A stretch of DNA of 57,948 bases from Escherichia coli (GTDB lineage: Bacteria; Pseudomonadota; Gammaproteobacteria; Enterobacterales; Enterobacteriaceae): the NCBI RefSeq assembly GCF_003334315.1, contig NZ_QOWR01000026.1, one strand, 5' to 3'. The notes beneath the pieces are model-generated. The model ran no database searches and had not been told where the DNA came from. It was given only the letters and a program-made list of their open reading frames with translations. The position numbers were made by a program, and so were the translations under genes. Of this stretch, positions 27,922-30,802 are shown piece after piece. Position 1 is the stretch's first letter; the number at the start of each line of letters is the position of its first letter.

Positions 27922-29430
<1,509 letters not shown>

Positions 29431-29524
29431 GGGACTTAGCCTGCGGCGGTTTTGTTTGGCTTCAGCAGCGGGTTGCGCTCCCTTAATGTGCCTCGCCATA
29501 TAAATTGAATGGTGCAGGGAGCGC

Positions 29525-29556
29525 GCAGGGGGCGGCCAATCGCCGCCGCCCCCTGC
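29525..29556. other. GC-rich perfect 12-bp hairpin downstream of putP
   Basis: GCAGGGGGCGGC-N8-GCCGCCCCCTGC; a second 8-bp inverted repeat GCGCTCCC/GGGAGCGC lies just upstream at 29475-29524. Confidence 0.5.
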
Positions 29557-29730
29557 TGTCCCGGCCTTCGGGGAACGCTTCAGCGATTTTGACGCCACCA
29601 ACACCCGAGCTGTTATTATGTTCCGGGCAAAAAGTTAGATTTGATAATCGCGGATGGACGAAATTGCTTGATACACCCGCTTATCAGTTTTACATGGAAG
29701 CTCTGATGCATTGAGTCTGGACAGTTTTGT

Positions 29731-29764
29731 CGGCTGGATACGGCGTTTACGCGGCATCCGGCAA
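29731..29764. repeat. REP element
   Basis: GCTGGATACGGCGTTTACGCGGCATCCGGC palindromic unit. Confidence 0.6.
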
Positions 29765-29894
29765 GAACACATGGCTCGTTGTAAACAATCCCATCTTTGT
29801 ACCTGGAATAATCGTTTATATCCCCTGGCATTACCTCTCTTTGTTTACATTTCAACATCATTTTATAAACATTCCGCTTGTATTTTTCTTTACC

Positions 29895-29913
29895 GTAATG
29901 ATAATCGCTATCA
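29895..29913. promoter_or_regulatory. Candidate Fur box upstream of efeU
   Basis: GTAATGATAATCGCTATCA, about 15/17 core match to GATAATGATAATCATTATC, ending 59 bp upstream of the efeU ATG. Confidence 0.65.
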
Positions 29914-29971
29914 CTGCGATTTACTTTTCTTTGCATAGATTGACTCAGAAAAACGTTTAAGGGTGGGTGGC

Positions 29972-30802
29972 ATGTTTGTTCCGTTTCTCATTATGTTGCG
30001 CGAAGGACTTGAAGCCGCGCTGATTGTCAGTTTGATTGCCAGCTATCTTAAGCGTACCCAGCGAGGCCGATGGATTGGTGTGATGTGGATTGGCGTGTTG
30101 CTTGCCGCTGCGTTGTGCCTGGGCTTGGGTATCTTCATTAACGAAACCACCGGCGAATTTCCGCAAAAAGAACAGGAACTGTTTGAAGGTATCGTGGCGG
30201 TGATCGCCGTGGTGATCCTTACCTGGATGGTTTTCTGGATGCGCAAAGTGTCGCGCAACGTCAAAGTGCAACTGGAACAGGCAGTCGATAGCGCATTGCA
30301 GCGTGGAAATCATCATGGCTGGGCGCTGGTGATGATGGTCTTTTTTGCCGTTGCAAGGGAAGGGCTGGAGTCGGTCTTTTTCCTGCTGGCGGCATTTCAA
30401 CAAGATGTCGGGATCTGGCCGCCGCTGGGTGCAATGCTCGGTCTTGCTACTGCCGTGGTGCTAGGCTTCCTGCTCTACTGGGGCGGTATTCGCCTCAATC
30501 TTGGTGCATTTTTTAAATGGACCAGCCTGTTTATTCTCTTCGTCGCCGCAGGGCTGGCAGCTGGTGCCATTCGCGCATTTCATGAAGCCGGATTGTGGAA
30601 CCACTTTCAGGAAATCGCCTTCGATATGAGTGCGGTGCTCTCAACTCACTCGCTGTTTGGCACGCTGATGGAAGGGATTTTTGGCTATCAGGAAGCGCCG
30701 AGCGTCAGCGAAGTCGCCGTCTGGTTTATTTATCTCATCCCGGCGCTGGTGGCATTTGCTCTGCCACCACGCGCAGGGGCGACAGCGTCTCGCTCCGCGT
30801 AA
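29972..30802 (+). CDS. efeU: EfeU ferrous iron permease (FTR1 family), intact
   Basis: Uninterrupted 276-aa ORF MFVPFLIMLREGLEAALIVSLIASYLKRT... with two REGLE motifs; in-frame GTG at 29963 is an alternative start. Confidence 0.9.
   Translation: MFVPFLIMLREGLEAALIVSLIASYLKRTQRGRWIGVMWIGVLLAAALCLGLGIFINETTGEFPQKEQELFEGIVAVIAVVILTWMVFWMRKVSRNVKVQLEQAVDSALQRGNHHGWALVMMVFFAVAREGLESVFFLLAAFQQDVGIWPPLGAMLGLATAVVLGFLLYWGGIRLNLGAFFKWTSLFILFVAAGLAAGAIRAFHEAGLWNHFQEIAFDMSAVLSTHSLFGTLMEGIFGYQEAPSVSEVAVWFIYLIPALVAFALPPRAGATASRSA

Follow-up and report, generated by a model that had tools for sequence, protein, structure and literature searches.

By sequence comparison, the two GC-rich hairpins that follow putP in the window (the whole stretch of Escherichia coli DNA analysed, 57,948 nucleotides) belong to TRIP1b and form its left end. 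TRIP1b is a copy of TRIP1, the repeat whose full-length copies are the replication risk sequences (RRS), and carries an internal deletion; it is already known and is not a new element. We consider it very probable that the hairpins represent the left module of a core-deleted paralogue, most likely an inactive relic, with possible incidental effects in the 3' UTR of putP. Two observations are added here to the knowledge of TRIP1: the presence of full-length alleles at putP, and the covariation of the left hairpins across Enterobacteriaceae.

Two adjacent hairpins downstream from putP

The region 29100-30000 was read directly, and an inverted-repeat search was run on the window. The putP ORF (502 codons) ends with its stop at 29430 in the ORF list, and two hairpins are located 45-126 nt downstream from this stop:

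29475-29524, unstranded: hairpin 1, arms GCGCTCCCT (29475-29483) and AGGGAGCGC (29516-29524); conserved left-end stem of the TRIP1/RRS family
29525-29556, unstranded: hairpin 2, arms GCAGGGGGCGGC (29525-29536) and GCCGCCCCCTGC (29545-29556)

Both stems are 100% complementary in the inverted-repeat search. Hairpin 1 has a stem of 9 bp and a spacer of 32 nt that forms a variable loop, while hairpin 2 has a stem of 12 bp and a loop of 8 nt, CAATCGCC. The earlier note, made from the letters of the sequence, had described an 8-bp inverted repeat directly followed by a perfect 12-bp stem with an 8-nt loop, about 45-125 nt from the putP stop. The second stem and the distance, measured from the ORF end at 29430, were confirmed; the first repeat is present as described, but its length is 9 bp. 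The two hairpins had also been called nested; in the fold, however, they abut side by side.

Perfect stems of at least 12 bp with a loop of 3-40 nt occur twice in the 57.9-kb window, against 0.11 expected from first-order Markov simulations. Folded as DNA, hairpin 1 reaches -12.9 kcal/mol (z -3.8) and hairpin 2 reaches -17.5 kcal/mol (z -4.5); the RNA fold of the 176-nt region including both hairpins is at -83.5 kcal/mol (z -2.6).

Identification of the hairpins as part of TRIP1b

The segment 29431-29640 was used as a megablast query against 5,426 complete E. coli genomes. Matches were detected in 5,402 of the 5,426 genomes at a median of three places per genome, unlike what a single-copy intergenic query should give. 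Query positions 42-126, which cover exactly both hairpins (29472-29556), also match the aqpZ-lysO spacer with 83-86% identity, and query positions 125-184 (29555-29614) also match the dusC-yohP spacer with 95-97% identity. The three copies at putP, aqpZ-lysO and dusC-yohP align as a single element of about 270 bp, the putP copy being without the middle. The gap is 124 bp long when a full-length allele from the putP locus is the reference, and about 125 bp with TRIP1a and TRIP1c, the copies in the aqpZ-lysO and dusC-yohP spacers. The parts of the putP copy are as follows:

29472-29617, unstranded: TRIP1b, the entire partial TRIP1/RRS copy, 146 bp, equal to MG1655 1080855-1081000, beginning 41 nt after the putP stop
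29554-29557, unstranded: deletion junction, where the 124-bp core is missing; its position is ambiguous by a 2-nt GC microhomology (alignment with the STEC005 allele, L005, and with TRIP1a/c)
29557-29617, unstranded: right arm of TRIP1b (paralogue and 62-member alignment, fold)
29560-29572, unstranded: CCCG/CGGG small hairpin within the right arm
29584-29591, unstranded: 3' half of the long closing stem, GCGATTTT, within the right arm, its partner lost
within 29557-29617, unstranded: conserved end GACGCCACCAACACC of the right arm

The sequence at the junction reads ...CCCCCT/GCTG.... The alignment of the window with MG1655 has an offset of 1,051,383 and places 29472 at 1080855, and the bounds 29472-29617 coincide with the ends of the similarity to the paralogues. 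TRIP1 was first listed by Rudd in 1999, as cited by Li et al. (2024, PMC10888264), who gave the coordinates of TRIP1b and described it as a partial form in which about 125 bp are absent compared with TRIP1a. Locus, coordinates, length of 146 bp and partial form are all equal, and the published TRIP1b is the copy in the window itself. Pham et al. (2024, PMC11194060) also mentioned TRIP1, and a "third partial repeat" besides the two RRS.

Three readings had been left side by side in the earlier note, a structured RNA element, a protein-binding palindrome and a degenerate repeat, with the reservation that they would have to be given up if a known repetitive palindrome family were identified. TRIP1/RRS is such a family, so that the three-way reading falls; from the alignment of paralogues and the published coordinates, the degenerate repeat was the correct option, in the form of TRIP1b as a partial member.

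Three alleles at the putP locus

The alleles at putP were counted in the 5,426 complete genomes with a query consisting of the unique flanks plus the full element. The full-length TRIP1 allele was found in 946 genomes (17%), including STEC005 and APEC E956. At least 80% of the intergenic region of the window was covered in 3,564 genomes, and subtraction of the full-length group leaves about 2,618 genomes with the deleted allele, which is the commonest state at putP (about 48% of complete genomes). Neither allele exists at putP in about 1,860 genomes (34%); strain A24 is one of these, with a putP-efeU spacer that is shorter by 322 bp and has another sequence. From the spacer of the window (29431-29962) and three further loci (L005, L006 and L007), the full allele, the deleted allele of the window and K-12, and the element-free allele are all seen to segregate in E. 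coli. The segment 29431-29640 is, in addition, 100% identical in several non-K-12 strains, including a derivative of BL21(DE3).

The window and MG1655 are identical across TRIP1b, and both differ from the full-length putP allele by one clean gap of 124 bp. This gap falls inside an otherwise collinear full-length copy, a test that the deletion origin passed. The comparison presented here shows that the deleted copy at putP is, to judge from its alignment, derived from a full-length copy still segregating at the same locus. In other putP alleles the element decays: in APEC E956 an 11-bp deletion removes the 3' arm of hairpin 1, and STEC005 and APEC E956 carry one uncompensated change each in hairpin 2. 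The frequency of the deleted allele and the identity between window and MG1655 are compatible with drift, and are no proof of neutrality.

Compensatory changes in the two hairpins among enterobacterial copies

A search of species-representative genomes with the pattern of the conserved core yielded 66 loci, nearly all in Enterobacteriaceae, including the genera Escherichia, Citrobacter, Klebsiella, Enterobacter, Pluralibacter, Kluyvera, Pseudescherichia, Pseudocitrobacter and Raoultella. The family occupies 1-10 places per genome in E. coli and up to 13 in Klebsiella pneumoniae. The core pattern was also observed in three MAG bins of non-enterobacterial assignment, Desulfacinum (L018), Proteobacteria (L026) and Sporobacter (L057). 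The flank of the Sporobacter locus shows about 90% identity with Klebsiella over 1.2 kb and the Proteobacteria contig is Escherichia-like; for these two, such enterobacterial-like stretches make contamination or mis-binning likely. The comparison for Desulfacinum is limited to the element itself, which is 94% identical to a Klebsiella copy.

A total of 62 enterobacterial TRIP1/RRS copies were aligned (alignment A3). RNAalifold predicted 47 pairs on this alignment, 20 of them with compensatory changes. For hairpins 1 and 2 together, 97.9% of the cells are paired, and both sides are changed in 10 of the 14 pairs (160 cells). Separately, hairpin 1 (columns 21-27/64-69) has both sides changed in three of its six pairs, with 97.8% of the cells paired, and hairpin 2 in seven of its eight pairs, with 98% paired. 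The covariation score of the two hairpins is 0.499 against 0.205 for column shuffles, of which 0 of 500 reached 0.499, and slid partners gave at most 0.18. Hairpin 2 (columns 72-125, corresponding to 29525-29562 of the window) keeps a stem of 10-12 bp and a loop of about 8 nt across lineages, even though at least eight distinct stems are found, GCAGGGGGCGGC, GCAGGGGGAGGA, ACAGGGGGCGGC, TGTAAAGGGCGT, TGTTAAGGGTAC, TGCAAGGGAGGC, GCCAGGGTGG and TGTTAAGAGGGC. Conservation and covariation across Enterobacteriaceae had been proposed earlier as a check on these hairpins, and the 62 copies answer it positively, both hairpins being maintained by compensatory changes.

The G4Hunter score at the site of the RRS G-quadruplex (G4), in contrast, is about -1.0 in the copies of Citrobacter, Pseudescherichia and Pluralibacter. 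Compensatory change thus preserves both hairpins, but the family as a whole does not conserve G4 propensity; both are new observations. Since the stem sequences vary with pairing retained, and since G4Hunter drops, what is conserved is a folded single strand rather than a duplex site or specifically a G-quadruplex. As to the strand that folds, the helices common to the predictions for both strands contain one G-U wobble on plus and 15 on minus, the plus-only pairs contain 108 and the minus-only pairs 66, and the consensus energies are -65.0 kcal/mol (plus) and -70.1 kcal/mol (minus).

A perfect palindrome in duplex DNA for a dimeric regulator, which was the second option of the earlier note, or a REP/BIME unit is very improbable in the light of these data. 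The dyad symmetry is perfect, and the site is intergenic and upstream from a regulated promoter. Against such a site, the stems differ by lineage (GCAGGGGGCGGC, TGTAAAGGGCGT and GCCAGGGTGG, for example) with complementarity kept, as for a folded single strand, and about 350 bp separate the hairpins from the efeU promoter. TRIP1b resembles REP/BIME in being GC-rich, intergenic and at a gene 3' end, with hairpins possible in the 3' UTR of the mRNA. In contrast to REP/BIME, TRIP1 has another sequence and size, 2-13 copies per genome instead of hundreds, and no match to the REP model; the REP consensus (an imperfect palindrome of about 35 bp in high copy number) does not describe the hairpins of the window. 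The earlier statement that they are not REP-like therefore stands, the REP-derived match being restricted to an ordinary unit elsewhere in the spacer:

29732-29768, plus strand: REP-like palindromic unit GGATACGGCGTTTACGCGGCATCCGGC, naRNA4 at 28 bits (threshold 59.5), separate from the hairpins

Genomic context and mobility of the family

By a crude ORF-based estimate, TRIP1/RRS elements are located almost always at gene 3' ends, 27 in convergent contexts, 12 and 13 in co-directional contexts in either orientation, and one in a divergent context. On the same estimate, no orientation preference relative to the neighbouring genes was found within the co-directional contexts (12 co-oriented versus 13 anti-oriented), which is in keeping with a role at the level of DNA and counts against an element dedicated to the mRNA.

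A phage collection searched with the full-length element gave no match, and the plasmid matches turned out to be chromosomal segments or mislabelled chromosomes; thus there is no sign of a mobile element borne by plasmids or phages. Neither terminal inverted repeats nor target-site duplications were seen at the boundaries of the TRIP1a module. In E. coli E69, the TRIP1a module of about 273 bp at aqpZ-lysO (L046 3881-4154) is turned round at its site with respect to the genes on either side, as compared with L002; the junction sequences differ, with no terminal inverted repeats or target duplication visible. Two family copies are arranged in tandem, 151 bp apart, in Raoultella terrigena (L078 141-659), and two copies in inverted orientation lie within 700 bp on the short Escherichia-like contig (L026 1-734), indicating that local duplication of the element occurs.

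Transcription context of the hairpins

The other features of the putP-efeU spacer and its downstream gene are listed below:

29903-29921, plus strand: sole terminator-like match in 29300-30000, AATCGCTATCACTGCGATT followed by a T-rich tail, within GATAATCGCTATCACTGCGATT just upstream from efeU
29963-30802, plus strand: efeU, an intact 279-codon ORF in the window; a pseudogene in the MG1655 annotation
29635-29937, minus strand: WP_001326841.1, a 100-aa "hypothetical protein" of RefSeq/PGAP in some genomes, antisense in the efeU promoter region

With its efeU frame intact, the window is not K-12. The call WP_001326841.1 looks like a spurious one over REP and promoter DNA, and does not overlap with the hairpins. 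The match at 29903-29921 in GATAATCGCTATCACTGCGATT resembles a Fur-box-like dyad of the iron-regulated efeU promoter more than a terminator. No promoter-like site was predicted on either strand of 29300-30000, and the terminator scan of the same region detected nothing at the hairpins and nothing between 29430 and 29475. Since TRIP1b starts 41 nt past the putP stop and no intrinsic terminator separates the two, both hairpins are probably transcribed into the putP 3' UTR. They share with intrinsic terminators a GC-rich stem-loop on the sense strand 3' of a stop codon, but differ in that a U-tract is absent after the stem (TGTCCCGG) and that family members lie in both orientations to genes. The bases following hairpin 2 are TGTCCCGGCC, without the T/U run that an intrinsic terminator would have within 0-2 nt of its stem; this agrees, as does the empty terminator scan, with the earlier remarks that the T-run is missing and that the hairpins are not a canonical terminator. 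A literature search on the putP 3' end or terminator gave nothing relevant, the single mention of putP in the E. coli 3'-end atlas being about the ymdG leader.

The hairpins might nevertheless have been selected as an element of the putP mRNA, either as a terminator lacking a U-tract, as a barrier to Rho entry, or as a 3'-end stabiliser, insulating putP from the efeU promoter under the control of Fur and CpxR. Their position on the sense strand 45-126 nt past the stop, the absence of other terminator-like sites and the very stable RNA fold of the 176-nt region would suit such a role. We regard it as rather unlikely: orientation to genes is unbiased within the family, TRIP1a follows an aqpZ terminator that is already complete, about one third of E. 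coli genomes are without the element at putP, and the U-tract is absent. For these four reasons any effect on the mRNA is better called incidental. For the decaying TRIP1b, such an effect could be that the hairpins in the 3' UTR hinder 3' exonucleases, by analogy with GC-rich extragenic palindromes in general.

Comparison of TRIP1b with the functional RRS

Pham, Cox, Goodman et al. (2023, PMC10287960; 2024, PMC11194060) described TRIP1a and TRIP1c as RRS, two GC-rich repeats of 222 bp located about 650 kb each from dif. With its G-rich strand as the lagging-strand template, the full RRS folds and gives rise to gaps that are about 2 kb long and covered by RecA and SSB (PMC10287960, PMC11194060), and DNA polymerases I, II and IV are stopped in vitro by RRS at a proposed G-quadruplex, GGGGGTGCAGGGGGCGGCGG, for which a third exact genomic site does not exist (Pham et al. 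2024, PMC11194060). RRS are conditionally essential and function at any insertion site as long as the orientation is kept; the inverted RRS shows no RecA/SSB peak in vivo, and two prominent peaks, at lysO and dusC only, were reported for MG1655 (Pham et al., PMC10287960, PMC11194060). With the C-rich strand of the full RRS on the lagging-strand template, gaps were formed in vitro in about two thirds of encounters (2026 preprint, PMC13308219).

The copy in the window is paralogous to these RRS. The 222-bp RRS covers hairpin 2 together with the 3' arm of hairpin 1, and the published G4 motif takes in the G-rich arm of hairpin 2. In contrast to the complete repeats of about 222 bp, however, TRIP1b retains the flanks with the central 124 bp gone, its G4 motif is broken by three mismatches and the loss of the first G-run, its G-rich strand would serve as the leading-strand template, and no gap or RecA peak at putP appears in the published reports. 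The remnant of the motif was located as follows:

29543-29562, minus strand: RRS G4 remnant GGGACAGCAGGGGGCGGCGG in place of GGGGGTGCAGGGGGCGGCGG, the first G5 run having been removed by the deletion

A search with the G4 pattern, three mismatches being allowed, gave this one match, against 0 expected. On the minus strand of the window, the motif consists of the G-rich arm of hairpin 2 and the neighbouring GGGGG, and the deletion junction cuts the motif. G4Hunter gave -1.36 for the window copy against -1.84 for TRIP1a and -2.36 for TRIP1c.

The GC skew of the window is positive throughout (cumulative +0.32), and the order and orientation of genes around putP are equal to those in MG1655. From skew and synteny we infer that the plus strand is the lagging-strand template, and that the G-rich minus strand, as the leading-strand template, would lie in the non-productive orientation. 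The same skew logic, when applied to TRIP1a, reproduces the published placement on the lagging strand. The strand that TRIP1b presents as the lagging-strand template is the C-rich one. With the core gone, the G4 broken and an orientation that is silent in vivo even for a complete RRS, TRIP1b is most likely inactive as an RRS, though a weak residual effect of its two hairpins is conceivable, given the gaps formed in vitro with the C-rich strand of the full RRS.

It is quite unlikely, in our estimate, that TRIP1b is a weak RRS still under selection, in which hairpins 1 and 2 would fold on the lagging-strand template (plus) and occasionally stall the synthesis of Okazaki fragments. Several observations speak for such a weak RRS: the two hairpins together amount to about -30 kcal/mol as DNA, no other parts of the family are so strongly preserved through compensatory change, it is the hairpins rather than G4 propensity that are conserved family-wide, the C-rich strand of RRS is active in vitro as the lagging-strand template (PMC13308219), and the deleted allele is frequent. 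In vivo, however, even the full-length RRS shows no RecA/SSB peak once inverted, and the prominent peaks reported for MG1655 are two and no more; furthermore, the core including the long closing stem is missing from TRIP1b, and other putP alleles carry uncompensated stem mutations or the 11-bp loss of a hairpin arm.

We thus return to TRIP1b as an inactive relic. The 124-bp deletion took away the whole core, with its long closing stem and its two GGAY-loop hairpins, and also the first G-run of the G4; what is left is most likely a slowly decaying relic without dedicated function. TRIP1b may also serve as a short homology for rare rearrangements with other copies; ten rearrangements involving TRIP1b were reported in 6,725 genomes (Li et al. 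2024, PMC10888264).

Similarity of the deleted core to the TwoAYGGAY motif

Scanned against Rfam at E<=10, the window copy gave a chance miRNA match over the hairpins and a sub-threshold naRNA4 match 170 bp away, and nothing else. The scan, which had been suggested earlier, thus assigns no RNA family to the hairpins of the window, and the structured RNA element of the earlier note is unsupported for this copy, the Rfam-like part of the family being deleted here. Full-length TRIP1a and TRIP1c, in contrast, match RF01731 (TwoAYGGAY) on the G-rich strand with 28-30 bits, below the curated threshold of 43 bits. TwoAYGGAY was found in gut metagenomes, Clostridia and gamma-proteobacteria, and no function was assigned (Weinberg et al. 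2010). After extension of the Rfam scan to 20 further family loci, the copy of Pluralibacter gergoviae reached 51.9 bits, above the threshold, with both loops being CAUGGAUG. Thirteen other copies from E. coli, Citrobacter and others, namely 11 of the further loci plus TRIP1a and TRIP1c, gave 26-31 bits, below the threshold and on the same strand throughout:

L041 3662-3816 (Pluralibacter), L002 2106-2245, L004 1399-1538 and 11 more loci, minus strand: TwoAYGGAY matches in full-length copies (RF01731 scan)

The region that matches is exactly the part deleted in the window; it is made up of a long closing stem, an inner stem and, next to each other, two hairpins whose loops carry GGAY. Full-length members thus have the architecture of TwoAYGGAY in their G-rich strand, with the same two stems and with (A)YGGAY loops on both hairpins, and TwoAYGGAY is multi-copy in Psychromonas, as TRIP1 is multi-copy. 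The differences are that the window copy is without any of the core and has no match at E<=10, that the copies of E. coli and Klebsiella are under the curated threshold, that the left hairpins 1 and 2 lie outside the Rfam model, and that TwoAYGGAY is annotated as RNA while the activity of RRS was demonstrated experimentally on DNA. An independent gene for a small structured RNA at the locus, for example of the TwoAYGGAY type, is exceedingly improbable, for although TwoAYGGAY matches are found on the minus strand of full-length relatives, they fall precisely in the 124 bp missing here, Rfam is empty for the window copy at E<=10, and promoter-like sites are absent from both strands of 29300-30000.

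The literature mentioning TwoAYGGAY, as searched, contained nothing on RRS, and six enterobacterial accessions looked for in part of the 2010 TwoAYGGAY alignment were not found there; the connection between RRS and TwoAYGGAY is probably unreported. We put forward, as a real but tentative possibility, that TRIP1/RRS may be the enterobacterial branch of TwoAYGGAY, and that selection may maintain its fold-back hairpins, including the two of the window, and not a G-quadruplex.

Implications for TRIP1/RRS

The identity with TRIP1b explains the odd GC-rich double hairpin after putP, a region that some pipelines may misread. For the window itself the consequence is little, this being a repeat copy already annotated in the literature. 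The TwoAYGGAY match, the covariation without G4 conservation and the three putP alleles are by-products that merit follow-up. Full-length, core-deleted and empty alleles exist naturally at putP, and could be used to find out which parts an RRS needs. The geometry of hairpin 2 (12-bp stem and 8-nt loop) is kept by compensation, but in Citrobacter, Pseudescherichia and Pluralibacter the G4 propensity has gone, and this questions a mechanism based on G4 only.

If the link with TwoAYGGAY is true, the putP copy would be a natural deletion mutant separating the flanking hairpins from the TwoAYGGAY core, with three wild alleles. One consequence would be that the TwoAYGGAY "RNAs" known from gut metagenomes, from Clostridia and from other gamma-proteobacteria are elements acting at the level of DNA and programming replication gaps; alternatively, RRS would act via a transcript, or via a loop-binding factor recognising the two GGAY loops. 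Such a link would give a motif of unknown function its first experimental handle, and would extend the concept of RRS beyond Enterobacteriaceae.
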